Source: Candidatus Brockarchaeota archaeon (GTDB taxonomy: Archaea; Thermoproteota; EX4484-205; JAAOZP01). Taken from it: a stretch of 56,090 nt of DNA. Within the stretch, counting starts at the first letter, position 1. Each line of letters begins with the position of its first letter. The translations under genes were made by a program, and so were the position numbers. The stretch lies in the NCBI GenBank assembly GCA_017601395.1, contig JAFNIQ010000005.1, positions 1-56,090 of the forward strand, written 5' to 3'. The notes under the pieces are model-generated. The model worked only from the letters and a program-made list of their open reading frames with translations. It did not search any database and was not told the DNA's origin. Positions 37,301-56,090 of the stretch are shown here, in pieces.

Positions 37301-40300
37301 CTATCCCACTGGCTTGTGATAATAGACTGTTGTTCCGCCGATTATGTCGAAGTAAACGACAACGGCCCAGTAGCCCTCGATCTCACCAGGCCCGATGATC
37401 ACGGGGTTACCGTTACCATCAGTGAATTGAAGTTTGCCTCCCTTACTGAATAATTCATTAATCGAGTTCTTATATTTTATCGCGTCTTCTGTGGCACTAT
37501 CGAGATAATCGCCGATGAGATTCGAACTCTTAGTTGATTTGATCGAAATGATTATGTACTCACCACTTAACTTTCTACGGAGTATCACATCCAGCTCTCC
37601 CGTCTCAGTTGGCACTCTCGTGCGCACGAATTCCGTATCCTCTAGCCCAGATATCTGATTGTTTATTGCTGCATTTGCAAATATTTCCTCCCCAAAGCTT
37701 CCCAATGCCTTCGGTGAGGCATCCACGATCTCTTGGAGTTGCTCCGGGACTAGCATTGAGAGTGACCTGTGCCATATTTCGACGCTCTTTAGCACCGTAA
37801 TGTCATCAGGTATTTTAACTAGAAGTTCGCTAGTACTACCCATAGCAAATTTTTTCCTACCGGAGCTGGTTTCGTAACATGCTAGTAGCAGCAACTCGCC
37901 GCTTCCAACCCTATGCCTTAGGTCCTGAACGTTATCATATCCAAAGATTTCCTCCAGCTCTTCAATTAAAGAGATACTTGATTGACCTCTCTTTAGCTGG
38001 ATATTAAGCTCATAAGCCCCCCACACGTTCCAGTCCTTGATATGAATTGGAACTTTCATCGGATGAGGCTTTCCATATTCATAGTCTATAATCAGCGTGT
38101 TCCCCTCAACTCTAAATTCAATAACAGGATGCGCCTGTCCCCCGATAAGAACAGAAACAGTCTTGTCCTCATGGAATATAAGATATGTCTCGCGTCCCCC
38201 TTGCTTTCCGATGCTCTTATTTTTGAGCTTTACCTTCACGGATGCCCTATGATTATTACTCCACGTACTCGGCTCAACTTCCCCTAGTTCTATCTTCCCC
38301 CATGAGCCGTCCGGCCTCATTATCCAGAAACCTTCAGAAAAGCTGAAACGGTAGTTATTACCTATACACTTGAAATTTAATACGTAATTATATTGGAGGA
38401 TGGTGACTTCCACGTCCTCTCCTACTAGCTCGGCCTTAAACTCTTTTGGAATGGTAGTGTGAAGCTTGCTGGCCGCATTCTTCTTATGGCTCCACTCAAA
38501 AATCTTCCCATCTTTTCTCTTCACCCTTATTAAGTAAATCCCTGGCTCTAGCGTAATGTCCGATCTGCTGATCACACCATAATCGGGCACGGTTTCACTA
38601 AACTTGGCGAGGACTACTTCGATATCGGCCTTCACCCTGAGCAATATCTCCTCAAACTTGAGTCTAAGTTCCTCGGGCGATAGCTCTGCAATCTTTGATA
38701 ACAGCTCTGCCATCGCCTTTAGCCTTTGCTCGTCGAGTTTCGGCAACATTTCCACAAGGCTTTCCACCCATGCATTGAAGGCTTCTGAGTTCTTCAAGAT
38801 TATCGTGATCAGCACGTCGGCCATGATCTTGCCATATTGCCGTATTCCAACGACCTTAACATATTTATCGAGGAAATCAAGTCCATTCTTGGAGGAGCTC
38901 ATCTTAGTCAGGACGCCCTTAAGGTCCTCAAGCCGATCCTTCTCTAGGTTCAGCTCCGCCAGTTCTAATATAGTCTCGGCCGCCTTATCCATTTCCTCCG
39001 CATCGAGCTCCTTCATCAACTCCACGATGATTTTCGCCGCGCTGCTCGATGTTGATAATATCCGAAGGTAGCCATCAAGGAGCTTAACAGTGCTCTCGGA
39101 ATTTCTGAGATTAATCAGCACCCTTCTGAAGACAGTGAGCTCGCTCTCATCAAACTCGAGAAACTTAGGGATTATCTCAGTGATTACTTTCTTCAATAGC
39201 TCTGAATCTTTAATGTTGCCTGTTAACTTCAGGAATTCTTCAGCAAGTCCCCTGTCTTTACTACTTATTTCTTGAATATCCTTGAGGAACTTCTCGAGCT
39301 TCTCATGCCCTAGGTTCTTAATTGACTCCCCATACGCCCTAATTAAGCTGAAGAAAGTTTCTTCCCTAAGCCCCAATCTCCCCGATATCTCCAGCGCCCT
39401 ATCTACATAATCTTCAGGAGATCCCATGTTATCCAGCACAGATTTGATAGATGGCTCATTCTCCACGATTGAGCCTAAGTATTTCGTAAAGCCTTCGCTT
39501 TGCTCAAAAATCGCGATCATGCATGCGAGTCTCCTTGCCACGAGTCTAGCTCTCACCTGCTTGATTAGTAAGGCTCCGAGATCCCATATCGCTGGAGTTA
39601 ACCAGTTGTAGATTCCCCTCAATACCTCCTTTATCTTTCCACCTAGGGAGAGGAGCTTTGGCCCATGGCTGAGGAACTTGTAAAAGATCACCTCGTATTC
39701 TATCAGGGAGGTCGCGGCCCCGACCAGTCTTCCTATTGCCCTCCCTTTCTCGTATTCGGTTGCATCCTCTCTGCCAAATGCTATAAATATGTCTCTCACC
39801 GTGATGTCTGCGAGGAGGTCGAGCCCGGTGTTCCCCATGACGAGTAATTGGCTCTCCTTTACCTTCTCCTTAAGCCTCTGGAAGAAAGAATAGGTCCGCA
39901 TATACCCGAAGTAGGAGGCTCTCTGTGAGAACCCTTCGAACTCCTCAGCAACTTTATCCATCACTGCATAAGTTGAGTAAGCGTCAAACAATTCCCTGAC
40001 GTTCGCTAGCGTGCCTACCATTAGACCTATGAGCACTCCTGTTGTAACTATCTTTTTTACGTAATGAAGCAGAGAGCCTCCAGCAGTCGGTATTGCCAGT
40101 ATGATCATTACTGTTGCGGTGATTATTATCCCGGGCAGTTTTTCCTGGACTCCATCCCAGAAGCCCTTCCAGAATTCTGAAACCTTACCCGCAGTACTCA
40201 CCAAGAGCGTTGAGATAATCCTGTTTCCGTATTTCAGGCGGATGAGAATTAAAGGGCTTGCGCTCTCAAGCTGAATAATGTTCATAGGGATTGAGCCATA

Positions 40301-42409
40301 GGCCGGGATGCTGAGGACACTGCTCTTCGGCAGAACTCCAACTATTGGTCCCTGGAGGACTTCGAGCTCGTAAGCCATATTCCTTGCAGCATAGTTCTTG
40401 ACTAAGACACCCTTAACCAGGTCTCCTTGGCATATGAGCGGACGGTAAATGAGCTCTATTGTTTTCCCATGCTTAACCCTTGTCGTGGCTTTGTTAAGAT
40501 CCCACTTCTTAACCCCCGTATCCTCATACTTATAGTCATAGTCTTCCCAGTTGCTATGCTTCAGTTGCTCGTAGAGATCATCGCTGACTGTTGCGATTTC
40601 AGACTGGTTGAGAACCTCCTCCTTTAACAGCTTAACCTCGTAGCCCGGTGGTATTCTGCTAGGCTCTAATCTCTCGTCTTCGTTTAAGTGAAAGAGCTTC
40701 TTAACTTCGTCCTCTCTCAAAACTCTTTCGCATAGGAAGCGGGGCTTAACGTCGAGGAGCATGTATCTCACTTCCGGAACCTTGGGGAAAATCTCCGCAA
40801 TGTTGCTCGCATTCCCTAAAGTCAGCGTGAAGCCATTGGGGGAGATGGGGATTAAGCTTAGTCCGTCGAAGAAACTCATGGATGGAGGTGCCAGACAATT
40901 CTTCATCAGGTAGAGCTTAACTTGCGTCGCACCCTGATAGCTGGGGACAAAGACCCTCTTGGTCTCCTCATAGCCTTCAACCTCTACTAAGTACGTCCTC
41001 CATTCCTCCGGAGTTACGAAGTTTGTGGTCGAGATCGTTATAAGCGCTGTGTTCGCATGCTTCCTCCCCTCAAGATCGTAGTAGACCGCTGTAACGTTAA
41101 CTTTAGCGATGGGAGTGAGAAGCTTGGTTATTACGTTTCCTTCCCAGGTGTGCCAGACCCTTCCGACGTCAAGCTGCTTCTCCTCAACATCGCCGGTTAT
41201 GAATAGCTTAACGTCTCTGGCCTCCTGCCCGCCGGTGTTCACCAAAGTTATCGTGAGGTTCGCGAACTTAGCTAAGGCCTTGGCTTCGAGCTCAACCCTC
41301 AGCTTAGGAGCCTCAGGTAAAACTGTTATGACGTAGGTTACTGTTTTCCCACCGTTCCAGAACACTACGTCCAAGCTCTTGGGCTCGACGACGGCAAAAT
41401 AGATGGTAATCTGGTAGACTCCTGGCCTCTTAGCTCTAAGGTATAGGTATGATGCTGGGCATCCCGAGCCATATGAGAAGCCAACTGGAGGGGGAGTCCA
41501 CGCTTCAAACGCTTCTTCGTCCGAAAACCTTGCTCCAAGCAGGACCCTGAAGCCTTTAGCCTCCTGAGGATTCCTTATCTGAGCACTTATCGTTATTACA
41601 TCTCCCATTTTGACCTTCGTAGATGAGATCCCCGTGTCAACGACAAGGGGATCATGTGCGGGGAGCAGGACTCTGAACTCGCATACCTGTGACTCTACTG
41701 CTTCACGCGTCTCCTCGAAGTGACCAGACACAGCAATGATAAAGCTCTCAAAGCCAAAGTTACCTTGGGTTAAGTTAGAAAAGAGCCCGATGTTCATCCT
41801 AACCGTCTTGTTGAACACCTTCCCGGTCTTCAGGTCGATGAAGGTGAGAGTGTAAGCATCGGGGTCGACGACCCTAACCAGGTAGGTTCTTCTCTTGGGA
41901 TACCTATAGAGGATGTGGAAGAGGTTGGTTCCGTTGCTCTCATACTTTATCGAGTCTGCGTCAACATCTTTTCCATGAATATCAACCACACTATAGGGAA
42001 TTTCTACGGATACGCTTCCATCGTTGCTTTGGCAAACCTGAATTTCATCATACTTGGGGATTATCGTGTAGTTCTTGAACTCGTAGCTTATCCGCGACGG
42101 TAGCTCCAGAGTGTCATTAGCGTCGATCATCGCTCTTTGTATCCCATCCTTCGAATAACCTTCCGAAACTAGTTGGGCCACAAAGAGCCAAAGCCTTTTC
42201 GCAAGATCAGTCGGAAAACCTTCTGGTATAATGAAATTAGCTTCGGTTATTGAGCCGCTGGGTATTTGTCCTCTCTCAAGTTCTTCCTCAATCTCCTTGA
42301 GAGCAGCTAATGCATTCGCCTCTCCTCCGCGAACCCTGACGTATAGCATGGTATCAAAGTGTGAGGTTAGTATGAGGATTAAGATGATTATAGCTAGTAC
42401 CCTACGCAT
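37301..42409 (-). CDS. Large secreted multidomain protein with C-terminal PD-(D/E)xK-like nuclease (putative polymorphic toxin)
   Basis: Start MRRVLAIIILILIL (signal). Ig/CARDB-like LTITLVNTGGQEARDV; internal hydrophobic hairpin (~40000-40180); helical repeats; C-terminal GSFGEEIF..GELDVIL..IISIKST. Confidence 0.7.
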   Translation of the reverse strand: MRRVLAIIILILILTSHFDTMLYVRVRGGEANALAALKEIEEELERGQIPSGSITEANFIIPEGFPTDLAKRLWLFVAQLVSEGYSKDGIQRAMIDANDTLELPSRISYEFKNYTIIPKYDEIQVCQSNDGSVSVEIPYSVVDIHGKDVDADSIKYESNGTNLFHILYRYPKRRTYLVRVVDPDAYTLTFIDLKTGKVFNKTVRMNIGLFSNLTQGNFGFESFIIAVSGHFEETREAVESQVCEFRVLLPAHDPLVVDTGISSTKVKMGDVITISAQIRNPQEAKGFRVLLGARFSDEEAFEAWTPPPVGFSYGSGCPASYLYLRAKRPGVYQITIYFAVVEPKSLDVVFWNGGKTVTYVITVLPEAPKLRVELEAKALAKFANLTITLVNTGGQEARDVKLFITGDVEEKQLDVGRVWHTWEGNVITKLLTPIAKVNVTAVYYDLEGRKHANTALITISTTNFVTPEEWRTYLVEVEGYEETKRVFVPSYQGATQVKLYLMKNCLAPPSMSFFDGLSLIPISPNGFTLTLGNASNIAEIFPKVPEVRYMLLDVKPRFLCERVLREDEVKKLFHLNEDERLEPSRIPPGYEVKLLKEEVLNQSEIATVSDDLYEQLKHSNWEDYDYKYEDTGVKKWDLNKATTRVKHGKTIELIYRPLICQGDLVKGVLVKNYAARNMAYELEVLQGPIVGVLPKSSVLSIPAYGSIPMNIIQLESASPLILIRLKYGNRIISTLLVSTAGKVSEFWKGFWDGVQEKLPGIIITATVMIILAIPTAGGSLLHYVKKIVTTGVLIGLMVGTLANVRELFDAYSTYAVMDKVAEEFEGFSQRASYFGYMRTYSFFQRLKEKVKESQLLVMGNTGLDLLADITVRDIFIAFGREDATEYEKGRAIGRLVGAATSLIEYEVIFYKFLSHGPKLLSLGGKIKEVLRGIYNWLTPAIWDLGALLIKQVRARLVARRLACMIAIFEQSEGFTKYLGSIVENEPSIKSVLDNMGSPEDYVDRALEISGRLGLREETFFSLIRAYGESIKNLGHEKLEKFLKDIQEISSKDRGLAEEFLKLTGNIKDSELLKKVITEIIPKFLEFDESELTVFRRVLINLRNSESTVKLLDGYLRILSTSSSAAKIIVELMKELDAEEMDKAAETILELAELNLEKDRLEDLKGVLTKMSSSKNGLDFLDKYVKVVGIRQYGKIMADVLITIILKNSEAFNAWVESLVEMLPKLDEQRLKAMAELLSKIAELSPEELRLKFEEILLRVKADIEVVLAKFSETVPDYGVISRSDITLEPGIYLIRVKRKDGKIFEWSHKKNAASKLHTTIPKEFKAELVGEDVEVTILQYNYVLNFKCIGNNYRFSFSEGFWIMRPDGSWGKIELGEVEPSTWSNNHRASVKVKLKNKSIGKQGGRETYLIFHEDKTVSVLIGGQAHPVIEFRVEGNTLIIDYEYGKPHPMKVPIHIKDWNVWGAYELNIQLKRGQSSISLIEELEEIFGYDNVQDLRHRVGSGELLLLACYETSSGRKKFAMGSTSELLVKIPDDITVLKSVEIWHRSLSMLVPEQLQEIVDASPKALGSFGEEIFANAAINNQISGLEDTEFVRTRVPTETGELDVILRRKLSGEYIIISIKSTKSSNLIGDYLDSATEDAIKYKNSINELFSKGGKLQFTDGNGNPVIIGPGEIEGYWAVVVYFDIIGGTTVYYHKPVG

Positions 42410-43583
42410 CTTTTCCAAACCCCTTTTCTTTGAGGCTGGCACTACGCATTCCTTTTACAAATATGATGAACAAAGAGATTGTAAAAACTGCTAAGGAGAC
42501 CGTTAAGAACCTCATCATATTAAGTTCTTCGGCTAGCTTCTTGGCTTCCTCAACTTCATTTAGACATCTCTTTTCATAAGCCTCAAGCGAAGCTTTTAGA
42601 ACGGTTATTTCAACCTCCTTGTTGTGGAGCTTATGTCCAAAGGTTTCTCGCTCCAGCCTAGAGTTATTCAGCATCGCCTTCAGGAACTTGTTCTCATCTA
42701 TAAGCCGGAGATATTTGGAGAAGATGGTTTCGCTGAGCTTGACAGTTAGAGTTGAGGTCGAGTTTAAGGTTCTAGCGCTCAGCATAAGCCTAACTGGTTC
42801 CTTGAGACCTGAGAACATTGACCAGTTAAGCATCACATTGTAAAACCCATATTCATATGTTACTTCATGATCCTTTATTAATGAGTCAGCTTGTAGAGTT
42901 GCCTTAACTTCCGCGATATTACCTGAAGCAACTATCCTAAACGTGAGCTTAAAGCCCTCTTCTCTTACGGAAATAGAATCTACAATTATCTCAGCAAATT
43001 CGACCGCTTCCTCTCCTTCAACCCTTATCATTGCACTTCCCTCCTCATACTTCTTCAATCCTTGCCTGTAACAGTCAACAAGGAAGCTTCTTCCAGAAAT
43101 CATATCACTGTCAACTGCGACCCAAAGCTGAGTCCCATTGGGCTCAAGCATGGGGTAGACGCATACGTAGAAATTGCCATTCACGACGACGTTTGGCAAT
43201 GGGACCTTAGCCCAATCCAGGGTCGCGTTCTCAAAGTGGTTGGAGATGAGGATGGAAGACCTGAAAATCGCGTTAAAATCGCTATCCCTCACCTCTATGA
43301 TGAAAGATTTCTCGCCCTTGACCAATGCGAAGCCGTAGATGAGAAGAGCGGTTATCCTCCACCTAAGGGCGGGGGGAGTGAATTTAACGGCCATCCCGTT
43401 GGGATAGTAATCGCTCCAGAAGCATTCCGCACCCCCATCGTCATAACGCAATAGTAGACTTGAATCGGGATAGATGCATGGGGTTTGAGCCAGCATCAAT
43501 AGGGACAGAAGCGCGATCTTCATTGCTTGAGCCGCGGATTTTATCTTTCCTCCAGTCCTTGATTTATCGGCCTCGCTCCTCAT
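42402..43583 (-). CDS. Secreted/anchored protein with YDDG beta-domain, coiled coil and C-terminal TM
   Basis: Probable start 43583 with TATAAAAA just upstream. Signal-like KIALLSLLML; LRYDDG..AVKFTP; heptad region; TM FLTVSLAVFTISLFIIFV. Stop overlaps the start of the large gene (ATGCGTAG). Confidence 0.7.
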   Translation of the reverse strand: MRSEADKSRTGGKIKSAAQAMKIALLSLLMLAQTPCIYPDSSLLLRYDDGGAECFWSDYYPNGMAVKFTPPALRWRITALLIYGFALVKGEKSFIIEVRDSDFNAIFRSSILISNHFENATLDWAKVPLPNVVVNGNFYVCVYPMLEPNGTQLWVAVDSDMISGRSFLVDCYRQGLKKYEEGSAMIRVEGEEAVEFAEIIVDSISVREEGFKLTFRIVASGNIAEVKATLQADSLIKDHEVTYEYGFYNVMLNWSMFSGLKEPVRLMLSARTLNSTSTLTVKLSETIFSKYLRLIDENKFLKAMLNNSRLERETFGHKLHNKEVEITVLKASLEAYEKRCLNEVEEAKKLAEELNMMRFLTVSLAVFTISLFIIFVKGMRSASLKEKGFGKDA

Positions 43584-45678: not shown

Positions 45679-47019
45679 CTAAGAAGCTCTTCCAACTTCC
45701 TCGTGAACCCTTTTGTGGAACCCCCTTACCTTTATTCTCCACTCGTCGAACCACCTATGAGGCGGGTAATCCACATAAAACTGCCTGAAATCCTCCATTA
45801 GCTTAACAGTCCTGTTAAGCTTCATAAGAAAGCCCGGTTTACCGATTCCCGCGAAAAACCTTGAAGCCTTCTCAGTAATGTTGAGCCTAAGACTCCCGCC
45901 CATGCTTGCCTCCAGAAGATCCCCGCTTTTAATAAGCCCCTGGGCCAAGCCGTAGTTTATAAGCTCATTGTTCAAGCCCTGTAGGAAAACCCTGAAAACG
46001 TCTAGAGAAGCCTGTTTAAAACCGTAGCTTCTCATATACTCCGTGTTGAAACCCCATAGGGATTCCTCGTCTACACAGCCCCTCTCCAAAGCTTCTGCAA
46101 CAACCTTGGCAGCCAGGAAGCCGCCGGTCATGGAAGACCCTATTCCCCCGCCGTGCAGAGGGTTAACCATGAAAGCCGCGTCTCCGACAGCTATAAAGCC
46201 GTTCCAAACGGCGGAGTCTATGGGCCTCCTGGCGGGAACTATTCCCCCACCCCTGTGGACAACGCCTACGATATTATCCTTAAGGCAGGGAAGCTTGTCG
46301 ACCCATTTTCTGAAGAGAAGCTTAGGATTCGCTGAACCCTTGGCGACGCCTAGGCCCGCGTTAACCCTTCCCTCCCCCTCCGGGAAAACCCAGAAGTAGC
46401 CTCCGGGAGCCTCATCCATATCTAGGTAGATGGCTGGGAGGGGAGGAGTCGTCCTCGTCTCCAAGATCTCTCGGTAGCACACCAGTGTTTCATCATCGTC
46501 AAGCTCCTGGTCAAAGCCCACTTTTTGAAGTTCTCTAGAGAGAACTCTTGAAGCACCCGTAGCATCCACAGTCACCTTCGCGTAAACATCCTGCTTAACA
46601 CCATTCTTGCCAACCAGCCTAACCCCTTTAACGCAACCCTGCTCCACGATCAGTCCCCTGGCCTGCGTCTCCGGCTTAAACTCGCATCCAGCGTCCAAGG
46701 CCAGTTTAAGGAGAAACTGGCCGAATTCAAGCCTGTTTAAAGCGTACGCGCTTAAGCCCTCGGCAACTACGCTGAGGCAAGTATGCATGTCGGGAGAGTA
46801 TATTTCTATCCCAGGGTATATGGAGAAATAGGTTTCACTGGGCAGGGTTAGCCTGAGCCTCTCCAAATGATGCGAGCCAAGAGCGTCTCCACAAACCTTG
46901 TCTCCAACCTTCTCCTGGCGCGACTTATCCACCAGGAGAACTTTCAGCCCTTTTCTGGCTGCTTCCCTGGCAAGCGTTGCGCCAGCCACGCCCGCGCCTG
47001 CTATGCACACGTCGTACAT
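45679..47019 (-). CDS. Geranylgeranyl reductase (digeranylgeranylglycerophospholipid reductase family)
   Basis: DVCIAGAGVAG, KVCGDA, PGGYFWVFP, VGDAAFMVNPLHGGGI. Confidence 0.9.
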   Translation of the reverse strand: MYDVCIAGAGVAGATLAREAARKGLKVLLVDKSRQEKVGDKVCGDALGSHHLERLRLTLPSETYFSIYPGIEIYSPDMHTCLSVVAEGLSAYALNRLEFGQFLLKLALDAGCEFKPETQARGLIVEQGCVKGVRLVGKNGVKQDVYAKVTVDATGASRVLSRELQKVGFDQELDDDETLVCYREILETRTTPPLPAIYLDMDEAPGGYFWVFPEGEGRVNAGLGVAKGSANPKLLFRKWVDKLPCLKDNIVGVVHRGGGIVPARRPIDSAVWNGFIAVGDAAFMVNPLHGGGIGSSMTGGFLAAKVVAEALERGCVDEESLWGFNTEYMRSYGFKQASLDVFRVFLQGLNNELINYGLAQGLIKSGDLLEASMGGSLRLNITEKASRFFAGIGKPGFLMKLNRTVKLMEDFRQFYVDYPPHRWFDEWRIKVRGFHKRVHEEVGRAS

Positions 47020-47114
47020 TAGGCGTGCGGAGGCTTAGGAGGGATAAAAGGGTTTCTCAACAGTTTTTAAGCGGTTTAACGGATACTGGAAGCGTGGAGA
47101 AACCTGGGAACGGG

Positions 47115-48281
47115 ATGGATTTCGAAACGATGAGCATCAGGGAGGGGAGGGCTGAAATAATCGTTCCCAAACCGGATTACTACAGGGTTTCGCCGAATGA
47201 ATACGTGCCTTCTAAGGCACCCGTATTCTACAATCCTTTGATGAAGGAGAATAGGGATTTCACGGTCATGGTTGCTAGTGTGATCAGGAGGAGGGTTGGA
47301 TACAGCCTCTGTTTCGGCGATTCTATGGCGGGCGTCGGAGTAAGATCGATAAGGGTTGTTACGGAGGCAGGGTGGGATGAGGCCCATGTGAACGATTCAA
47401 GCCAGAGAGCCTTTGCAACCATAGTTATGAATATTAGGCTGAACAGGCTGGAGGAGAGGCTGCACGCGTCTAAAATGGATGCGAATGTTTTCCACGTGGA
47501 ACATTCCCCTAGGGGCAGCAGGTTTGACATGCTTGAGCTGGATCCTTTCGGAACACCCGTAAGGTTTCTTGACACTTGTTTTCAAGCCGTTAAACACGGC
47601 GGCGTGCTCAGCGTAACCGCCACTGACACAGCCAACCTTTTCGGCGTGCATAAGCGGGCTGCGAGAATGCTTTACGGCGTGAATGTTTTGAAAACTGGCT
47701 TCATGCGGGAGATTGGAGTCAGGGTTCTGCTTAAAGCAGTGGCCGAGGCTGCCGCTAGGAATGAAAGAGGAATAGAACCTATTGTTTCAGTTACGAGGAG
47801 GCATTACGTTAAGGTTTTAGTAAGGGTTTTGAAGGGTAGGAAACATGCTTTCAAAAGTGTTTCGCAAATCAGGTTTCTTAAATTAAGGAGGGTTGAGAAA
47901 ATATATGTGCCACTCGGTGTGGTTGACGTTGAAGAAGGATGCGAGAAGGATTCCCTGCTGCTGGGGCCGCTCTACACTGGTCAGACATACTCTAGGGAAT
48001 GGCTTGAAAAAATGCTGCTTCTGAAAACAGAGAATACATTTGTGGATAAAGATGTTTTCAAAACCCTTGAAACCCTAGTCTCGGATGACCAGAAGATCGT
48101 GGGGGGCATTGATTTAACCGGGTTGGCTTCAAGCCTGCATGTGAACCCCCCTGGGAGAAGCCTTATTATAGAGAGGCTTGCGAGAGAAGGGTTTACAGCG
48201 TGCAGAAGCGGTTTCGATAATAATTGCGTGAGGACTGATGCTGGGCTTGACGAGCTTGTTAGAATTATTAGAAGCCTTTGA
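47115..48281 (+). CDS. trm1: tRNA (guanine-26 N2,N2)-dimethyltransferase
   Basis: VFYNPLMKENRD, GVRSIR, DANV, LDPFGTP, VTATD; start reassigned to ATG 47115. Confidence 0.9.
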   Translation: MDFETMSIREGRAEIIVPKPDYYRVSPNEYVPSKAPVFYNPLMKENRDFTVMVASVIRRRVGYSLCFGDSMAGVGVRSIRVVTEAGWDEAHVNDSSQRAFATIVMNIRLNRLEERLHASKMDANVFHVEHSPRGSRFDMLELDPFGTPVRFLDTCFQAVKHGGVLSVTATDTANLFGVHKRAARMLYGVNVLKTGFMREIGVRVLLKAVAEAAARNERGIEPIVSVTRRHYVKVLVRVLKGRKHAFKSVSQIRFLKLRRVEKIYVPLGVVDVEEGCEKDSLLLGPLYTGQTYSREWLEKMLLLKTENTFVDKDVFKTLETLVSDDQKIVGGIDLTGLASSLHVNPPGRSLIIERLAREGFTACRSGFDNNCVRTDAGLDELVRIIRSL

Positions 48282-48888
48282 AAAACCTAGCGACCAGATA
48301 AAATTCTGAACTCCCCTTGCGGGAAGCCTTAGGCTTAAATCTTTTGACAAACCTGAAGAGCCTCATAACCCTTCTGTAAACTCTATTGGAACCCTCTCCC
48401 TCGAAAACCTTAATCACCATCGACCCTCCTGTCTTCAACAGGTCCCTCGACAGTTGGAGGACCCTTTCAACCATCTCGATCTGCCTAGCGTGATCGAGCT
48501 CATAGATCCCAGACATGTTAGGCGAGAGGTCTGAAAGAATCACGTCGAACCTGCTTTTAGATTCTTTTAAAACTTTTCCAACAAAGTCCTCGTCAAAAAC
48601 GTCGAGCACGATTGTCTTAATATTCTCAGAACCCAGGTTTTCAACTTCCTTAACATCCACCCCAATAACCAGCCCGGTTTCACCGACGGCTTCAGAAGCA
48701 ACTTGAAGCCATCCTCCTGGTGCGCACCCAATATCTAGAACAATATCGCCTGTTCTGATAACCCTGTACTTATCCAGTATCTGCTTAAGCTTGTACGACG
48801 CCCTGCTACGATATCCCTCTTTTTTCGAAAGTATAAAATACGGGTCACGCTTCCTCTCTTGAAGCCACCGCCTCTTTGACTTCAGCAT
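48268..48888 (-). CDS. rlmE: 23S rRNA 2'-O-methyltransferase (RlmE/FtsJ)
   Basis: GYRSRASYKL, DIGCAPGGW, ILSDLSP, KPKASRKGSSEFY. Confidence 0.95.
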   Translation of the reverse strand: MLKSKRRWLQERKRDPYFILSKKEGYRSRASYKLKQILDKYRVIRTGDIVLDIGCAPGGWLQVASEAVGETGLVIGVDVKEVENLGSENIKTIVLDVFDEDFVGKVLKESKSRFDVILSDLSPNMSGIYELDHARQIEMVERVLQLSRDLLKTGGSMVIKVFEGEGSNRVYRRVMRLFRFVKRFKPKASRKGSSEFYLVARFFKGF

Positions 48889-49258
48889 CCGCTCCCCCCA
48901 CGCCGATCGTAAGTATCCACTTATCCAGTAGTTCACAACGTTCAGGGCTTATTGCAGATCCTGGTGAACAACTCCTGTTGAAATGCTGGCATGCAAAGCA
49001 TGGTGAACCCTTCAACGAATCTATCTTTGGAACCTTGCGCGTCGAGTAGAGCTTATAGGTCCATCTCTCCTTGTGAAGAACCCTCTCCCTCTTTATCAGC
49101 CCCCATGACTCCAGTTTCAAGCAGATTCTCGACCCCTCTCTGCTCGATATGTTAAGCATCTTGTATAGGTCTGTCTGAACCACTCCGTCCTTGGAACGCA
49201 TTATGATGTTAAGGACCTTTCCCTCAAGCCTGTATCTTCTCGAGACCTTTCTGACCAC
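48845..49258 (-). CDS. Transcription factor E beta subunit (RPC34/RPC39-like wHTH plus 4Fe-4S domain)
   Basis: wHTH GVVQTDLYKMLNISSREGSRICLKLE..GLIKRE, then PCFAC..C..ISPERC..LDKW. Confidence 0.8.
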   Translation of the reverse strand: MVRKVSRRYRLEGKVLNIIMRSKDGVVQTDLYKMLNISSREGSRICLKLESWGLIKRERVLHKERWTYKLYSTRKVPKIDSLKGSPCFACQHFNRSCSPGSAISPERCELLDKWILTIGVGGADAEVKEAVASREEA

Positions 49259-49369
49259 CGAGGCTTTATCACCACTGTTAACAGTAGCGTTTCCAAGCTA
49301 TAAAGGTTTTCCGAGCACTATGCTTTTCTGGGCTGAAAGGCGTATTTTAGAGCATAAAGGCATACTGGC

Positions 49370-49990
49370 TTATTTACGCTTTCTGAGGAGCATTAAACCA
49401 TCTTTCTCGAAGACGTATTCGAAACCCGCTTCCAGAAGCTCTTTAGCCTCCTCTATAGTCTTCGCGACTTTAACCGTAAACTCGTCATTCTCCTCACCTT
49501 AGAGAGCCTTTTCAACCTGGATGTAGAGCATTGTGTTTTCAATATCCTTATGGCCGAGCATCTCTTTAACGTGCAAGATATCCTTAGTTTTATGGTACTC
49601 CATAGTTGCTTTCCAATGCCTAAAGGTGTGGAAGGTTATTCTTAGAAGCCTAGGGTTATTAAGCTTCCTCGCCAGCCTCTTACGTTGGGCCTCGAAATTC
49701 GCCTTAAGCGCCCTATATTGCGTGGGGAAAAGCCTCTCGTTAATCTTAGGCAGCGTGTTGAGCATCCCCATGAGCCTAGGGCTTATTCTGAAGATCCTGG
49801 GGTTAGAGTTCTTCTCAGGCTCGTTCAGGATTATGACTTTCCTCTCCAGGTCTACATCTCTCCAAGTTAGCCTCAACGCTTCTCCTATCCTCATGCCGGT
49901 TTCTTTAAGCAATTGTAGAAGTATGGAGACCTTGGGACCACAGCCAGCTATCAACGCATCCAACTCGCTCTCCAAGGGTATGAAGGGCAG
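49370..49990 (-). pseudogene. Tyrosine recombinase/integrase, N-terminally truncated, with a premature stop
   Basis: LPFIP..ETGMRIGE, PEKNSNPR, FHTFRHW, LGHK..TMLY. An in-frame TAA at 49499-49501 precedes the tail EFTVKVAKTIEEAKELLEAGFEYV..RKRK*. Confidence 0.85.
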
Positions 49991-50032
49991 GGGCCCTCTT
50001 ATGAGATCTATATTGTTGCAATATTTTTCATC

Positions 50033-50827
50033 TTACAGCACAAGTCCCTCGCAGTATATCTTATTATACCCTTTTCTCAATATACATAGGCCTACCAAGA
50101 ATGTAGAGATAGAGGCGATTATGAAAGTAAAGTACTCCAATGATATAACTGGCAATTCTTCGAAAAGGATCTTGCGCCAAACCAGATAAGCCCATGAATA
50201 TGGTAGAAGCCACACAAATTGTTGTAATATTGGCGGCAATATTGTTAGAGGGAAGTATTGCCCTGAGAACACATATTCGAAGAACCTGAAGGCGAGGCTA
50301 ACGGGCTCGGCTTTTTTGGTAATGTAAACTACGCCGTTCTCAAGAAAGTTTAGACCGATGCTCATTGTCATCCATAACACCAGAAAGAGTAGGATTGATT
50401 CCAATCTCATACTTAAGTTTCTCAAGGACGCGATTGCTATGGCATATATGAGGACAGGATACGCATTAAATTTCACGTATATGCTAAGCCAAGTTTGTAT
50501 TAGAATTAAATATGGGGGAATTGGCCTTGAAAATGAATAATAGAACGAACTCAAGTGAAGCGGGAAGTTATATCTAAATGGATTTGCGATCTGGGAGAGT
50601 AAGAGCCCGGAGAGAATGAATCCTAGCGGCATGCTCACGCCATACTCCAAAATACCCCTCTGGTAGATTATTGAGTAGCCGAGGAAATAATACGTCAGAA
50701 AGGAACCAATAGTCCCAACTGCAGTGGTAACTATAACAGATCTGTATGCAACGATCTCATACCAATTCCCCAGTATCGAGTAATACCATAAGGACCTAAG
50801 CACCGCTTTTATGTTCACTTGCCTCAC
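50033..50827 (-). CDS. ABC-2 type exporter permease
   Basis: About 6 TM segments; FSGQYFPLTILPPILQ..LLPYSW motif. Confidence 0.85.
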   Translation of the reverse strand: MRQVNIKAVLRSLWYYSILGNWYEIVAYRSVIVTTAVGTIGSFLTYYFLGYSIIYQRGILEYGVSMPLGFILSGLLLSQIANPFRYNFPLHLSSFYYSFSRPIPPYLILIQTWLSIYVKFNAYPVLIYAIAIASLRNLSMRLESILLFLVLWMTMSIGLNFLENGVVYITKKAEPVSLAFRFFEYVFSGQYFPLTILPPILQQFVWLLPYSWAYLVWRKILFEELPVISLEYFTFIIASISTFLVGLCILRKGYNKIYCEGLVL

Positions 50828-51797
50828 TTCCTACTAACATTCTGAAGACATCGCTTAATGTGGGCTCCTCATATGTTAATGAAAGTATTTCCGTGCCAGA
50901 CGAGCTGGATAATTCAACTAATCTTTTGGGTTTAAGACTACCTTTAATCGCTTTCACGACGATCGTTGAATCGTCTTTGATCTCGTCGACTTCCGTTACT
51001 CCCTCAATTTTTTCTATCTCGGATCTGAATTCAGAATATCTCCCGCGAACCTTTATCATGATTCGATCATATTTTTGAACCAATCCCTTAAGATCCTTTG
51101 GACTGCCGGAGGTGATCATTTCTCTCTTCAGAAAAATTATTCGATCACAAAGGTATTCCGCTTCTTCCATATTCTGCGTAGTTAGTAATATGGTTTTTCC
51201 ATCATCTTTAAGCTTCTTTAATACTGCCCATATTTCCATGCAAGACAGCGGATCCAAGTGTATCGTTGGTTCATCGAGTACTATACATGGCTTGTCATTC
51301 ATTAGTATTTCGGCTAGCATTAATTTCCTCTGCATACCTGAGGAAAAACGAGCAGGCCATTCGTCTTTCCATGCTAGTAACCCGACGGCCCTAAGTACTT
51401 CCGTCGCTTTCTCCCTAATATTTCCTCTAATGCAATTTATAGCTGCAAGCATCTCTAAGTACTTGATTGCCGGCAAGCGAATGAAGCCTTGTTCAAGATT
51501 CATGTAGCCAGTTAGGTAGAGTGTTATGTATTTTTCACAGACCCTTCGCTTAAGTCTTCGGATGTCCTCTCCCATTATGAACACGGTGCCTCTTGATGGC
51601 TTCAATAACCCGCTTATTATCAGTGATAGAGTAGTCTTTCCAGCACCATTGGGGCCTAATATACCTAAAATCTCACCTTCACTGACATTAAAATTAATTT
51701 CCCTTAAAGCGAGGATTTCTTTTCCCCTTCCTGAATAAGACTTCCATAAATCATCGACAACGATAGGCTCCAACGGAGTCCCTTTTTTAATCAACAT
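50796..51797 (-). CDS. ABC-2 type exporter ATP-binding protein
   Basis: GPNGAGKT, FSSGMQRK, VLDEPT, TTQNMEEAE..CDR. Confidence 0.9.
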   Translation of the reverse strand: MLIKKGTPLEPIVVDDLWKSYSGRGKEILALREINFNVSEGEILGILGPNGAGKTTLSLIISGLLKPSRGTVFIMGEDIRRLKRRVCEKYITLYLTGYMNLEQGFIRLPAIKYLEMLAAINCIRGNIREKATEVLRAVGLLAWKDEWPARFSSGMQRKLMLAEILMNDKPCIVLDEPTIHLDPLSCMEIWAVLKKLKDDGKTILLTTQNMEEAEYLCDRIIFLKREMITSGSPKDLKGLVQKYDRIMIKVRGRYSEFRSEIEKIEGVTEVDEIKDDSTIVVKAIKGSLKPKRLVELSSSSGTEILSLTYEEPTLSDVFRMLVGSEASEHKSGA

Positions 51798-51849
51798 TCC
51801 GTATACTTAAAAACTTTATTCCAATGCGTTATCATTAAGGCATCTGTTT

Positions 51850-51990
51850 TTATGTTGGACTTTTTTCTGGACCTATCTGACATTTCCAACAGGAACCATC
51901 ACAAGCGATACATAATGGTTCCACTTTATCCTTTTTAGTACTTGGATTAATGACTTTCGCAATAGGTTTCTGATATTTTTCCTTACTCAT
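51850..51990 (-). CDS. 46-aa Cys-rich peptide, candidate RiPP precursor (not in the ORF track)
   Basis: MSKEKYQKPIAKVINPSTKKDKVEPLCIACDGSCWKCQIGPEKSPT*. GGAGA just before the ATG; co-oriented and directly upstream of the ABC exporter. Confidence 0.7.
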   Translation of the reverse strand: MSKEKYQKPIAKVINPSTKKDKVEPLCIACDGSCWKCQIGPEKSPT

Positions 51991-51992
51991 AT

Positions 51993-52015
51993 TTCTCCAA
52001 AAATTTTTTGGAGAA
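51993..52015. promoter_or_regulatory. Perfect 11-bp inverted repeat overlapping the peptide gene's SD
   Basis: TTCTCCAAAAA-T-TTTTTGGAGAA. Confidence 0.55.
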
Positions 52016-52128
52016 GGAGTGAGCATAAGCTTTTTTCTTAAAAAAAGAGTTATTGATCAATTTTATTGTACATGGATCTAACTACTAATGTTTAAGGAAA
52101 AAAGAGGGGGACCGGGGAGATTCCACTC

Positions 52129-52362
52129 TCAGGCCTTTCTGGGTTTAAAAAACACGACCTCGCCTTTCCCAACTTTCTTGGCGTTTCTTTTTAAAACCAC
52201 CACGGCATAGGGCTCTTTAACTGGACCTATTATGTCTGTAACGCTGCCTATCGGCCTCATTTCCCTGCTTAAGACGAGGGAGCCTAAGCCAACTAGTCCA
52301 TCCAGCCTAACTAGAGCAATCCTGTTGTTAAGAATGTTTTCAACAGTCCCTTTACGTTTCAA
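52129..52362 (-). CDS. gar1: H/ACA RNP protein Gar1/Naf1
   Basis: IGSVTDIIGPVKEPYAVV; follows srp19. Confidence 0.85.
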   Translation of the reverse strand: MKRKGTVENILNNRIALVRLDGLVGLGSLVLSREMRPIGSVTDIIGPVKEPYAVVVLKRNAKKVGKGEVVFFKPRKA

Positions 52363-52655
52363 CCGGCACCACCCTTCATGGCCCTCCCGATTTTTTCAAT
52401 AATACTCTTCTTCCGCATATCCTTGCAGAAAACTACTATTCGCCCACACTTAACATTGCTCACCCTCGGATAAGCCTTGTCGGGTTCCACAATGATCTTT
52501 AAGCCAAGCTTTCGACATGCTTCCTCAACCCTAGCTAGGCTCGGAGAATCAACCGCAAGAACCTTGGGCACCCGCCTACCCATTTTTCGCGAGGCCCTGG
52601 AGTCAAAATACTGTGGGTAAACTATTACGTAGCGTTCCTTAGAAATGCTTTTCAT
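52359..52655 (-). CDS. srp19: Signal recognition particle protein SRP19
   Basis: VYPQYFDSRASRKMGRRVPK..AVDSP, DKAYPR. Confidence 0.9.
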   Translation of the reverse strand: MKSISKERYVIVYPQYFDSRASRKMGRRVPKVLAVDSPSLARVEEACRKLGLKIIVEPDKAYPRVSNVKCGRIVVFCKDMRKKSIIEKIGRAMKGGAG

Positions 52656-53041
52656 CTTTCAGAAACCAGTTTAGCGTTCACAACCCCGTTAGAGCCCGGT
52701 TTAGAGGTAACTACAGCATTGCCCACTTCAGTCTTTATTATAGCACCCTTAGTTATTATTTTCATCCTTCCGAACTCCCTGTTCGCAGGGTTATCAACTA
52801 CGTCTAAAACCTTGGCTTTCACAACCCTATCCTTCTCAACAGCGACGTTAGCATAAGCAGCCTGAGTAACCCTAAGCTTTAATCCTCCTCCTCTGACCCT
52901 AACCTTTTCAACAACATTATTCTCCCCGAGCCTCGTAAGGGTTGGCGGCCGCCCCATTTCATACTTTCGTTTACTCCTGTTAGGGTGACTCTTACCCCCT
53001 GTCTTCTTCCTCTTGAATATGTCTCCGTGGTATACTGACAA
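52652..53041 (-). CDS. rps8e: 30S ribosomal protein S8e
   Basis: KRKKTGG, KRKYEMGRPP, RVRGG, IITKGAII, VTSKPG..GVVNA. Confidence 0.95.
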   Translation of the reverse strand: MSVYHGDIFKRKKTGGKSHPNRSKRKYEMGRPPTLTRLGENNVVEKVRVRGGGLKLRVTQAAYANVAVEKDRVVKAKVLDVVDNPANREFGRMKIITKGAIIKTEVGNAVVTSKPGSNGVVNAKLVSER

Positions 53042-53234
53042 CCTGCCCCAGACTTCTTAAAATAATGCTTAAAAACTTATTCCTAGGCGTTTATGCTAAG
53101 CTTTATGAGGCTGTGGAGCGGCTTAACATTTAGTTTTCGAAGCGGGGAGGGTTCTAAAAGTTATATTAAAAAGAAAGACCGTGAATATTATTCTAATGCG
53201 AATAGTGTTAGCGAACTTGGAGAGGGTTTAAAGA

Positions 53235-56090
53235 TTGCATTTGACAAGGATTGAAATCAGGAATTTCAAATCGGTAGGCGGCCGACAGGTTATAAACCTG
53301 AGCAGAGGCTTAACTGTTTTAACAGGTAGAAACGGCTCTGGAAAATGCGTAGCCCCTTGGACAGTCATAGAACGGCCGTGGGGAGGACTTGCTGTAGAAT
53401 CTCTTTTCAAGGAGGCGTCTTCAGAGGGTGTTAGAATCAAGCTGGTGGACGGGGAATACGTGATTCCCCTTGAAAGGGAGCCGCTCATAAGCTACCAAAC
53501 GCTTCTAGGTAGGAGCGTTGAAGCCGGTGTTAGCGCAATTTTCAGGAGACCCTACGAGGGATTCATGTTAAAAATTGAAACAGAAAATGGCAGAAAGATT
53601 GAGGTAACCCCGGAACACAGGCTGATGGTGGCCGACGGGAAGGGGGCACACAGGTGGATTGAGGCTTCACGGCTCTCAGAAGGCGTGAAGATAATTGTTA
53701 TTGACAATGGGAAAACAAGCCTTGATGTTTTAAACAGGATTGTTAGGAATGTTTGGAGAGGAGAAGTATACGACATATATGTTGAGAACATCGGCTCATA
53801 CGTTACAGGGGACGGCGTGATAGTTCACAACAGTAATTTAATCGACGCGATACGTTTCGCACTCGGTGAAAACAATCCTAGGCTTCTCCGGATAGACAGG
53901 CTTTCCTCCCTGGTCAATGATAACGCAGGCAGGGAAGCGGAAACCTACGTGAAAATAACCATAGATAATAGTGACTCAACAATACCCGGGCAAGAGAAGC
54001 TTATAACGGTTGCTAGGAGAATGGGGAGGGACGGGGAGAGCACGTATTATCTCAATGGTAGAAGAACCTCTAAAAACGTTGTTGAAGACACCATCTCTTC
54101 AACAGGTCTTTCTGCAAGAGGCTACAACATAATACCGCAGGGAGAGATTTCACGATTGGCTGATAAAAATCCCGTGGAGAGAAGAAAGGAGATAGAACAG
54201 GCACTAGGCTTAGCACAGTACGACGAGAGGAAGTCGGAGGCGCTTAGCAACCTGCAGCAGGCCGACAATAATCTCAGAGTGGCACAGGCTAGGCTTCAAG
54301 AGATCGATAGAAGAATGCTGCAATTAGAAAGAGAGAGAAACATTCTGCTCAGAAGAAGAATGCTTGAGAAAGAAGTGGAGAAGATGCAGATGATTATCAA
54401 TTCGTTCGAGTATTGGAGGCTCGTCAGAAAACTGGAGGAAATATCGCGAAGCCTAGAGGAAAATACTGCTTTGCGAGCTAAGCTTGAAGCAGAGCTTGCC
54501 TCCAGACAGGCGGAGAAGAGAAGCATTATAGAGAGAATGGAGGAACTTTTGAAAACCGCTGCTTCAGCAACCCCTGACACTGAGAGAATTAGGCTCGAAT
54601 ACGAGTTAAAAGACCTTGAGAAAAGGCTTGGAGAAGCTTTTGAAAGGCTTGAGAGAAACAGGAGCGAGTTAAACACGATTAAAAAAGAATTGTCGAAAAC
54701 TAGGCGGAAGAGGAGTAAGAGTATTAGGAAAATGGCCAGCCTGACAGAGGATTATGGACGCATGCTTGTAAAACGCTCTTCGATCAACACCAGGATACTT
54801 CGTCTTTTAAGCGAGAAGAAGAGGCTTCAAGAGGTTGAGAAACAACAGGAGGCGGAGATTTCCAATATTATGAATAGGCTGATCTTAGTCAACAGGGATT
54901 TAGACCGGCTGATGCTTGAGGAGGAGAATTCGAAAAGAATGCTAAGAGAAGTCGCTACTTATTATGATAGTCTAAAGAGGAGAATCGGGTCTTTGAGTAG
55001 GAGGAGGAAGATGGAGACGGTTAGAAAAAGCAGGGTAGTTGAGAAACTGGCTGATCTTGACAGAGTTTTAGCGGAGAGAAGAAGGATGCTGGATGAAATA
55101 ATGAACACCGTTAAAATCTTAATGAGTAGTCTGGATTCATTCAGAATCCTTTTTGCAAAAGTTTCCGGAATAGCGGGCTACGCTATTCAGGATGAGAGAA
55201 GTAGGAGGGTTCTAGAACTTGTGAAAACTATTTCTGAGAAAAAAAGCTTAAGTATTTACGGAATTCTAAGAGAAAGCCTTTGGTTTCCAAAAGAATTGAG
55301 TAGAGCTGTTGAAAGCCTGGCTGGCGATTGGATGGACGCTGTACTCGTTAAAAGCTCTCTAGACATGCTTTTCCTAATGAACTTTCTTGGAGGTAAAGGA
55401 ATTGGGATTAAAGTGTTAACCTCCGAGGGGGAGGTAAACAGGAAAGAAATACCTCTTGAACTCAGTAAGCGTGGCAAGCATATGATGGATATAGTCAAAT
55501 ACCCTAAGAGTATTGAGAAACACGTCTTAAAACTTTTCTGGAATAGCGTTGTGGTTAACACTACCGAGGACGCCCTCGTCTTCGCTAGAAGAGGGTTCAG
55601 GGCAGCAACCATAAACGGCGAGGTTTTCATGGTCGAAGGAGGGTTGGTAAGGGAGAATATTGAGGAGAAGCTTGAAAGCGTTAGAAGCCTTGTGAAAAGC
55701 TTCTCCGAGAAAGCCGGCGAGTTAGCCAGAATACTTGAAGCCATGAATAACCATGTGAGGCCAGTTTTAAACAGTAAAATAGTTGAGGCAGCGAGTATTC
55801 GAAGCAGGCTTGCCGAGGACCTGAACACAATTGACTCTCGTATGAAGGAGTTGGAGGAACAGTTAGACACTTTGACCAGCGAGTATTTAGAAGCATCTCG
55901 AAGATTGAGTCAAGCGTTCAGAAAACGTGACGCGGGTAAAAAGCGTCTCTTGGAAAGGGAAAGGATAAGGTTAAAATCTTTAATCGTAGTTAGGGAGAAA
56001 AGTATCAGCAGGGTTCGCAGGAGAATAAGGCTGATTGAAAACGAGTTGAACGGGCTTGAGAAAAAGAGAGAGGCTTTAAAAAACAGACTA
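53235..56090 (+). CDS. smc: Chromosome segregation protein SMC (3'-partial, intein-containing)
   Basis: TTG start after GGAGAGGG. IEIRNFKS..VLTGRNGSGK[intein]SNLIDAIRFALG, YNIIPQGEI (Q-loop), coiled coil, hinge IYGILRESL..AVESLAGDWMDAVLV. The gene runs off the window end, which explains its absence from the ORF track. Confidence 0.9.
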   Translation, partial: MHLTRIEIRNFKSVGGRQVINLSRGLTVLTGRNGSGKCVAPWTVIERPWGGLAVESLFKEASSEGVRIKLVDGEYVIPLEREPLISYQTLLGRSVEAGVSAIFRRPYEGFMLKIETENGRKIEVTPEHRLMVADGKGAHRWIEASRLSEGVKIIVIDNGKTSLDVLNRIVRNVWRGEVYDIYVENIGSYVTGDGVIVHNSNLIDAIRFALGENNPRLLRIDRLSSLVNDNAGREAETYVKITIDNSDSTIPGQEKLITVARRMGRDGESTYYLNGRRTSKNVVEDTISSTGLSARGYNIIPQGEISRLADKNPVERRKEIEQALGLAQYDERKSEALSNLQQADNNLRVAQARLQEIDRRMLQLERERNILLRRRMLEKEVEKMQMIINSFEYWRLVRKLEEISRSLEENTALRAKLEAELASRQAEKRSIIERMEELLKTAASATPDTERIRLEYELKDLEKRLGEAFERLERNRSELNTIKKELSKTRRKRSKSIRKMASLTEDYGRMLVKRSSINTRILRLLSEKKRLQEVEKQQEAEISNIMNRLILVNRDLDRLMLEEENSKRMLREVATYYDSLKRRIGSLSRRRKMETVRKSRVVEKLADLDRVLAERRRMLDEIMNTVKILMSSLDSFRILFAKVSGIAGYAIQDERSRRVLELVKTISEKKSLSIYGILRESLWFPKELSRAVESLAGDWMDAVLVKSSLDMLFLMNFLGGKGIGIKVLTSEGEVNRKEIPLELSKRGKHMMDIVKYPKSIEKHVLKLFWNSVVVNTTEDALVFARRGFRAATINGEVFMVEGGLVRENIEEKLESVRSLVKSFSEKAGELARILEAMNNHVRPVLNSKIVEAASIRSRLAEDLNTIDSRMKELEEQLDTLTSEYLEASRRLSQAFRKRDAGKKRLLERERIRLKSLIVVREKSISRVRRRIRLIENELNGLEKKREALKNRL
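53346..53831 (+). mobile_element. Mini-intein (162 aa, no homing endonuclease) in SMC Walker A
   Basis: Starts CVAPWT (C1). Block B IEVTPEHRL, W.EAS.L..G, block F GEVYDIYVE; ends VIVHN followed by Ser+1. Removing it restores GRNGSGKS. Confidence 0.92.

Follow-up and report, generated by a model that had tools for sequence, protein, structure and literature searches.

We analysed a 56,090-nt stretch of DNA from a Candidatus Brockarchaeota archaeon (contig JAFNIQ010000005.1 of assembly GCA_017601395.1), the whole of which is referred to here as the window. It contains a small integrated island with the gene for a cysteine-rich peptide of 46 amino acids (aa), an ATP-binding cassette (ABC) exporter pair directly downstream of it, and part of a tyrosine integrase. 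On the minus strand the genes run peptide, ATPase, permease, integrase fragment and MarR-like gene, with those for S8e, SRP19 and Gar1 upstream. The features of the locus are as follows (E, expect value; unstranded features carry no strand).

49322..49338, unstranded: attL-like repeat GCTTTTCTGGGCTGAAA, the left insertion edge; the empty site of a same-genus genome (L032) matches both junctions with a 17-nt overlap
49499..49975, minus strand: tyrosine-integrase remnant of 158 aa, catalytic domain only (PF00589, E 1.3e-21)
50033..50827, minus strand: putative six-helix ABC-2 (type V) exporter permease
50796..51797, minus strand: DrrA-type ABC ATPase (PF00005, E 4.6e-25, and the DrrA C-terminal domain PF13732, E 7.5e-07, each passing its cut-off)
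51809..51823, unstranded: 15-nt junction AAAAACTTTATTCCA in the peptide-ATPase spacer, present on both sides of extra DNA in sister assemblies
51850..51990, minus strand: gene of the 46-aa peptide, with ATG at 51990, TAA at 51850-51852 and product MSKEKYQKPIAKVINPSTKKDKVEPLCIACDGSCWKCQIGPEKSPT
51994..52014, minus strand: 21-nt palindrome TCTCCAAAAA-T-TTTTTGGAGA in the 5' leader of the peptide gene
52129-52362, minus strand: Gar1 (PF04410)
52133..52149, unstranded: attR-like repeat GCCTTTCTGGGTTTAAA, directly past the Gar1 stop

The locus is a mosaic remnant of an integrated mobile element, with a tyrosine integrase, att-like repeats and an empty site in relatives. Window positions 46000-54000 were compared by blastn with the 16 other genomes of the genus. 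The flanks of the element (up to 49338 and from 52133) abut in seven of these (G002, G003, G006, G007, G008, G009 and G012), and two (G010 and G016) have other DNA at the same site; in the remaining seven the flanks match at lower identity and are left out of the abutment count. Where the junction was aligned, the flanks overlap by 17 nt, and the empty site of G008 reads GCTTTTCTAGGTTTAAA, so the insertion spans 49339-52132 (2,794 nt). A preliminary description of this DNA had placed the peptide inside an island; this is borne out, and the island can now be narrowed to the interval between the two 17-nt repeats. The repeat pair is imperfect, and a default repeat search did not report it.

The integrase remnant corresponds approximately to residues 236-393 of an intact 439-aa integrase in G010 (81% DNA identity over the region), with both ends missing. 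Three sister assemblies from one study (X1 and X2, at least 99% identical to the window, and X3, 95-99% identical) differ from it within the remnant by indels of 10, 6 and 1 nt, which argues that it is a decaying pseudogene; the three other genes look intact. The guanine-plus-cytosine (GC) content varies by module, from 0.467 in the integrase remnant to 0.329 in the peptide-ATPase spacer, with 0.46-0.48 in the core flanks. The element of G010 (L030, G010:C23:30500-38500) occupies the att site that the window uses, flanked by the MarR-like gene and Gar1. It is 4.75 kb long and encodes the intact integrase together with a 655-aa replication-like protein, whereas the window holds the exporter pair and the peptide in place of replication genes, and 158 aa of integrase. 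The occupant in G016 (L031, G016:C21:22000-27500) is a 598-aa membrane protein. Three different cargos thus lie between the MarR-like gene and the stop of Gar1, which makes this place a hot spot of integration in the genus. Integrase paralogues (69-74% nucleotide identity) are also found at other sites in G002, G006 and G010.

The preliminary description had quoted a 46-aa open reading frame (ORF) with a Shine-Dalgarno sequence, and its sequence is as given there; GGAG stands 6 nt ahead of the ATG. The product has a basic N-terminal half carrying YQKPIA and a C-terminal part that reads CIACDGSCWKCQIGPEK. An alternative in-frame ATG upstream, at 52026, would give a 58-aa reading; the 46-aa form is favoured because a 1-nt insertion after 52024, present in all three sister assemblies, breaks the extension. 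Among the sister-assembly indels listed, which are all but three, none falls inside 51850-51990 and five fall within the 140 nt upstream. GC content is 0.348 in the peptide ORF and 0.338 in the region upstream of it. Folded as RNA, the palindrome would give a hairpin of 10 bp that hides the GGAG, with pairing around the start codon (minimum free energy -17.1 kcal/mol for 51975-52045, z -3.5, with 1 of 200 shuffles equally good); it might serve as an operator or as a switch of translation.

Judged from its relatives, the 46-aa ORF is probably a real gene, constrained and very rare. A word-indexed search of 5.8 billion protein clusters returned a sole relative, P0001 (51 aa, 82% identity, E 3.5e-15). 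When 1.84 billion representatives were scanned in full with HMMER, two matches reached E <= 0.001, one homologous (P0009; 40 aa, 61% identity, E 1.1e-06) and the other P0010, considered below. P0001 and P0009 are independent homologues; the preliminary description had named a lack of conserved homologues as grounds for giving up its proposal. The three-way alignment has 22 invariant columns, and 17 of these fall in the 18 aligned positions that precede the tails. The longest contigs listed for P0001 (4,629 nt) and P0009 (11,413 nt) agree in length with none of those listed for permease and ATPase homologues, a comparison that covers one contig per protein and decides nothing on whether a transporter lies beside them. 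The block LCIACDGSCWKCQxGPEK is unchanged in the three sequences apart from one I/T, and the stops fall no more than 3 residues apart. The N-terminal half is only ~25% identical between the window and P0009, yet Y6, P9 and V13 are kept. The pattern C..C...C..C occurs 4 times in the six-frame translation of the genome, against 1.6 expected, so the motif alone is unremarkable; the ORF stands above chance because it is conserved in P0001 and P0009.

The peptide gave nothing at E <= 1 in any of the 16 other genomes of the genus and no match better than E 0.16 among the 60 relatives searched. Its profile found nothing in 25 other genomes of the class or in 41 genomes of the order of G375, and nothing credible in 400 other genomes of the phylum, where four weak matches (E 0.003-0.006 per genome) are at chance level. 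Searches of Pfam (E <= 0.01), NCBIfam (E <= 0.1), PHROG and PADLOC gave no match to the peptide, the profile reached only E >= 0.64 against PDB sequences, and an ESM Atlas search returned unnamed clusters (top score 0.86) and no lead.

P0010 (499 aa) matches the peptide at E 1.8e-4 through 7 stretches of repeated ...PLCLFHGQGCWK... units, and we attribute this to repeat-inflated chance or to convergence, not to homology. The protein is secreted-looking and has ~14 repeats of ...PLCLFHGQGCWK(R/E), with acidic spacers containing KR sites between them; the repeat unit resembles EPLCIACDGSCWKC of the window peptide, and the architecture is presumably like that of fungal Kex2-processed repeat precursors. 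The one viral-contig match (L036) consists of ‘RIACDGSCW’ in an off-frame of a capsid-region ORF and was set aside as chance.

The best single point for a leader is the YxxP motif, read from three sequences of which two are close to each other. Discrete RiPP recognition elements (RREs; RiPP, ribosomally synthesised and post-translationally modified peptide) of lasso-peptide systems bind [Y/W]xxPx[L/V/I/F/A], a motif that lasso and LPP systems alike require for binding, according to PMC13381572. It is present in all three peptides (YQKPIA in the window, YQKPIA in P0001 and YESPAI in P0009), and given the amino-acid frequencies of this genome the chance of YxxPx[LVIFA] is ~1.2% per 26-residue leader. 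The statement in the preliminary description that YxxP marks RRE-dependent leaders is accurate for lasso and LPP leaders, and inaccurate for RRE-dependent RiPPs in general. AlphaFold2, run on the three-row alignment, gave a low-confidence model of the peptide (predicted local distance difference test, pLDDT, 57.5) with a hairpin of residues 26-30/34-38 around a D-G-S turn, which sets C30 opposite C34 and C27 opposite C37. Such a predicted hairpin would suit two disulfides or one metal site alike and decides nothing between them.

The exporter genes overlap, the ATPase gene running over the permease start. The ATPase has TIGR01188 (drrA) as its top NCBIfam match, at 197 bits and so under the cut-off of 312. 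Called from ATG at 51797 it is 333 aa long, with a 52-nt spacer to the peptide. The true start is likely TTG at 51773 (325 aa, 76-nt spacer), because the near-identical P0026 is called at 325 aa (333 minus 8); X3 has a 1-nt insertion after 51778. The permease has 7 homologues of 58-99% identity and likely starts 3 codons in, since homologues are called at 261 aa; at NCBI, proteins that are 99% or more identical to it bear the label Candidatus Brockarchaeota archaeon. It matches nothing in Pfam (ABC2_membrane included) or NCBIfam. Its AlphaFold2 model (8 sequences; pLDDT 63.5, predicted template-modelling (TM) score, pTM, 0.62) is nearest to the type-V (ABC-2) exporters KpsM, Wzm, TarG and ABCH/ABCG at TM scores of 0.45-0.57, with Foldseek E values of 3.6e-3 or more and none <= 0.001. 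A permease query found no relative among viral contigs; PADLOC gave only generic ABC ATPase similarity and PHROGs a generic ABC ATPase and an integrase, with nothing for the permease in either. GC content is 0.409 in the ATPase and 0.410 in the permease, and both genes (the ATPase taken from TTG 51773) are free of indels among those listed for the sister assemblies. At LLTTQNMEEAEYLCD, a position that we take to be the ABC H-loop, the ATPase subfamily has Gln where the loop has His, both in the window and in the four homologues compared. A near-identical permease variant, P0002 (292 aa), carries a 28-residue internal tandem duplication (LLSQIANPFRYNFPLHLSSFYYSFSRTR).

Is the peptide tied to the exporter? 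It shares the strand of the pair, 52-76 nt upstream of the ATPase, and four assemblies (the window, X1, X2 and X3) have both in a single island. In the sister assemblies extra DNA lies between them (1,061 nt in X1 and X2, 2,600 nt in X3); no further piece of it aligned, so that it is nowhere 80% or more similar to window 49000-52500. Two sizes at one point in a decaying element would be explained more simply by stepwise deletion between the 15-nt repeats than by insertion. The extra DNA sits at the maturase position of precursor-maturase-exporter operons, so a maturase may have been deleted here, as the preliminary description suggested. Homologous ATPase-permease pairs (54-63% identity) occur in other archaeal metagenome-assembled genomes and on metagenome contigs. 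One copy (G375) is split across two frames, one (G006/L010) is truncated to residues 90-264, and one pair (L013) is preceded by the end of a tRNA gene and part of an integrase, so the exporter cassette is itself mobile cargo, often decaying.

The reading that we tentatively favour, which we regard as possible and still short of probable, is that the 46-aa product is a leader-core peptide left as an orphan when its integrative element degraded. The basic N-terminal part would carry the docking motif YxxPx[A/I], and the invariant four-Cys C-terminal hairpin would be the functional part, either cross-linked by a partner enzyme or self-folded around disulfides or a metal. Because the island holds no maturase, at most the unmodified peptide would be produced in this genome. 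The exporter, linked to the peptide by adjacency only, may give export or self-protection. We infer the leader-core division, the cross-linking, the secretion and the role of the exporter.

Many observations weigh against a leader-core peptide served by this exporter. Lasso precursors have Thr at leader position -2, Gly, Ala, Ser or Cys at core position 1, and Asp or Glu at core position 7-9; counted from C27, the peptide has no Thr at -2, and its Asp and Glu fall at 5 and 16. It has neither a signal peptide nor a double-glycine site, and the NCBIfam precursor models (SCIFF included) give no match to it at E <= 0.1. Four distinct homologous pairs whose upstream side is visible (L009, which is the same as L015, L013, and two in tandem in G345) have no homologue of the peptide there, nor any C..C...C..C ORF, and G375 and G345 carry the transporter and no peptide anywhere in the genome. 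An A/T-rich, TATA-like stretch lies 33-50 nt before TTG 51773, inside the spacer, and includes the 15-nt junction; together with the TTG start it suggests that the exporter has its own promoter. The GC content of the exporter (~0.41) differs from that of the peptide module (0.34-0.35), and secretion of hydrophilic peptides of 46 aa is not, to our knowledge, known for ABC-2 exporters. Peptide and exporter appear to be separable cargo modules.

Nor did a modifying enzyme come to light. Pfam detected no radical S-adenosylmethionine (rSAM), YcaO, LanB/C, peptidase C39 or PqqD domain among the 43 further ORFs of the window, which encode housekeeping enzymes, a histidine-biosynthesis operon, glycoside hydrolases, a MacB-type ABC pair and several unknowns. 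Among the island genes, Pfam and NCBIfam gave no maturase-type family, lasso cyclase or leader peptidase. The whole genome (91% complete, 156 contigs) has 21 rSAM matches, 2 for SPASM and 1 for PqqD, none of them on the contig of the window, and no match for YcaO or LANC_like. The direct tests run for a RiPP pathway at the locus are all negative. The preliminary description had also held that its proposal would fall if homologous transporters had no maturases near them, and none was seen beside the four distinct pairs, which lack the peptide as well. What stands of its RiPP reading is the ORF, the exporter, the island and the conserved YxxP; the maturase was found neither in the island, nor on the contig, nor beside the transporter homologues examined.

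Could the enzyme act from elsewhere in the genome? Of the SPASM enzymes, the one on contig C124 is AhbD/NirJ-like, and the rSAM/SPASM gene on contig C106 is the only peptide-maturase-like one in the genome. The sole PqqD-like protein (contig C4) is 178 aa long with a coiled-coil tail. A full RiPP precursor matured in trans by the CbpB-like C106 enzyme, or with the PqqD-like protein, would fit the NCBIfam matches of that enzyme, led by maturases of peptides (CbpB, 1e-53; anaerobic sulfatase maturase, 1.2e-35; PapB, 1.5e-35), and the presence of one discrete PqqD-like protein. The C106 gene is, like the peptide, specific to this genome among its kin, with no close copy in any of the 16 genus relatives (one holds a 33% identical homologue), and the GC content of its surroundings (0.33-0.43) is near the 0.35 of the peptide module. 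The enzyme nevertheless scores under every curated cut-off, its frame is broken near 105-113 and the gene is cut by the contig end. Upstream of its homologues (31-32% identity) in G163 and G299 lie small ORFs that end in ...GLTHYxMxxDxSPF and are unlike the peptide. The PqqD-like protein is present in 13 of the 16 genus relatives, all without the peptide, and so belongs to the genus core. A complex prediction of its residues 15-125 with the peptide scored 0.11 against a mark of 0.32, which is no evidence either way. With the C106 gene broken and cut off, and its homologues next to unlike ORFs, we consider maturation in trans highly improbable.

The C106 gene lies in a second low-GC island (C106:1-2420, L069), missing from relatives, together with two helix-turn-helix regulators. 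A 31-aa ORF upstream of the rSAM gene was considered as its precursor; its alignment to the small ORFs upstream of the homologues is weak (25% and 16% identity), and it is not claimed.

A different account of the four cysteines makes the peptide a mini-protein of the mobile element that binds a metal (Zn or Fe-S) inside the cell. The four Cys would hold one metal at the tip of a hairpin, the basic N-terminal tail would contact nucleic acid or a partner, and the exporter would be separate cargo. Archaeal mobile elements commonly carry small Cys-rich proteins, and four invariant Cys lie here within 11 residues, paired C27/C37 and C30/C34 in the low-confidence hairpin model. The lack of a nearby maturase and the separability of peptide and exporter also favour it. 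The spacing, however, is not the one usual in zinc ribbons, where 10-20 residues separate the two CxxC, and no Pfam, NCBIfam, PHROG or PDB sequence match exists to support it. It also leaves unexplained why Y6 and P9 are retained in an otherwise free N-terminal half. We hold a metal-binding mini-protein to be the main rival, a serious possibility if a somewhat doubtful one.

The ORF might instead have no product of its own and either regulate, as an upstream ORF or leader, or exist by chance, what matters being the hairpin and promoter region that control the exporter. The stable hairpin that buries the GGAG, and a four-Cys pattern near chance genome-wide (4 against 1.6), suit this idea, but it does not account for protein-level conservation in two independent sequences with the stop kept within 3 residues. 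Transporter homologues also occur without any such ORF, and in the sister assemblies 1.06-2.6 kb part the ORF from the exporter, and this explanation appears very unlikely. A further reading takes the orphaned leader-core peptide a step back, to a new archaeal RiPP or peptide-derived cofactor family. Its members would have a lasso/LPP-like YxxPx[A/I] leader and a CIACDGSCWKCQxGPEK core, and the enzyme, encoded within the 1.06-2.6 kb, would have been deleted here; the precursor-maturase-ABC-2 cassette would travel on small integrative elements among hot-spring archaea. We judge this unlikely.

We take sactipeptide, ranthipeptide and SCIFF operons to consist of a precursor, an rSAM/SPASM maturase and an ABC ATPase with permease, as presumably in subtilosin Alb and thermocellin CteA/CteB. 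The locus resembles these in having a short ORF with a Cys-rich tail directly upstream of an ABC pair, and in its SCIFF-like size of 46 aa. Unlike them it has no rSAM/SPASM gene and four Cys only, and its leader motif is of the lasso/LPP type, not that of SCIFF. The resemblance to lasso and LPP leaders lies in YQKPIA or YESPAI near the N-terminus in all three sequences and in a genome with one discrete PqqD-like protein; unlike lasso/LPP loci, there is no cyclase or leader peptidase nearby, no penultimate Thr, and the PqqD-like gene is unlinked. For the exporter we assume that DrrAB and LanFEG-type ABC-2 exporters are a further apt comparison. Operons of an ABC ATPase (arCOG00194) and a permease with six transmembrane helices are frequent in archaeal ‘dark matter’ islands, according to PMC4158269. 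The locus is like these systems in its overlapping DrrA-like ATPase and predicted six-helix permease, fast-evolving permease, mobile island and patchy spread. It differs in that it lacks a substrate-binding third gene, its ATPase scores under the drrA cut-off and its permease has no Pfam ABC-2 match.

Elsewhere in the window, an SMC gene (53235-56090, plus strand) carries an intein-like insert directly past the Walker A GSGK (CVAPW...VHNS). Between 32529 and 44755 lie large ORFs without a Pfam match at E <= 1e-5, encoding a 1,713-aa protein (37301-42442, minus strand) and proteins of 734, 449, 232, 220 and 196 aa. At 17061-18208 (minus strand) a DegT/DnrJ/EryC1 aminotransferase is divided between two overlapping ORFs (profile positions 40-203 and 217-324), by a frameshift or as a pseudogene.

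Regardless of the class of the peptide, the locus exemplifies the module-by-module decay of integrated elements, and it cautions that a small Cys-rich ORF beside an ABC pump does not make a RiPP call without a maturase. Archaeal ribosomal peptide natural products are poorly charted, and a mobile precursor-exporter cassette carried by an uncultured lineage of hot springs would be a useful entry point to them, if the maturase exists. Should the new RiPP family prove true, genomes labelled Brockarchaeota would have here their first locus of this kind.

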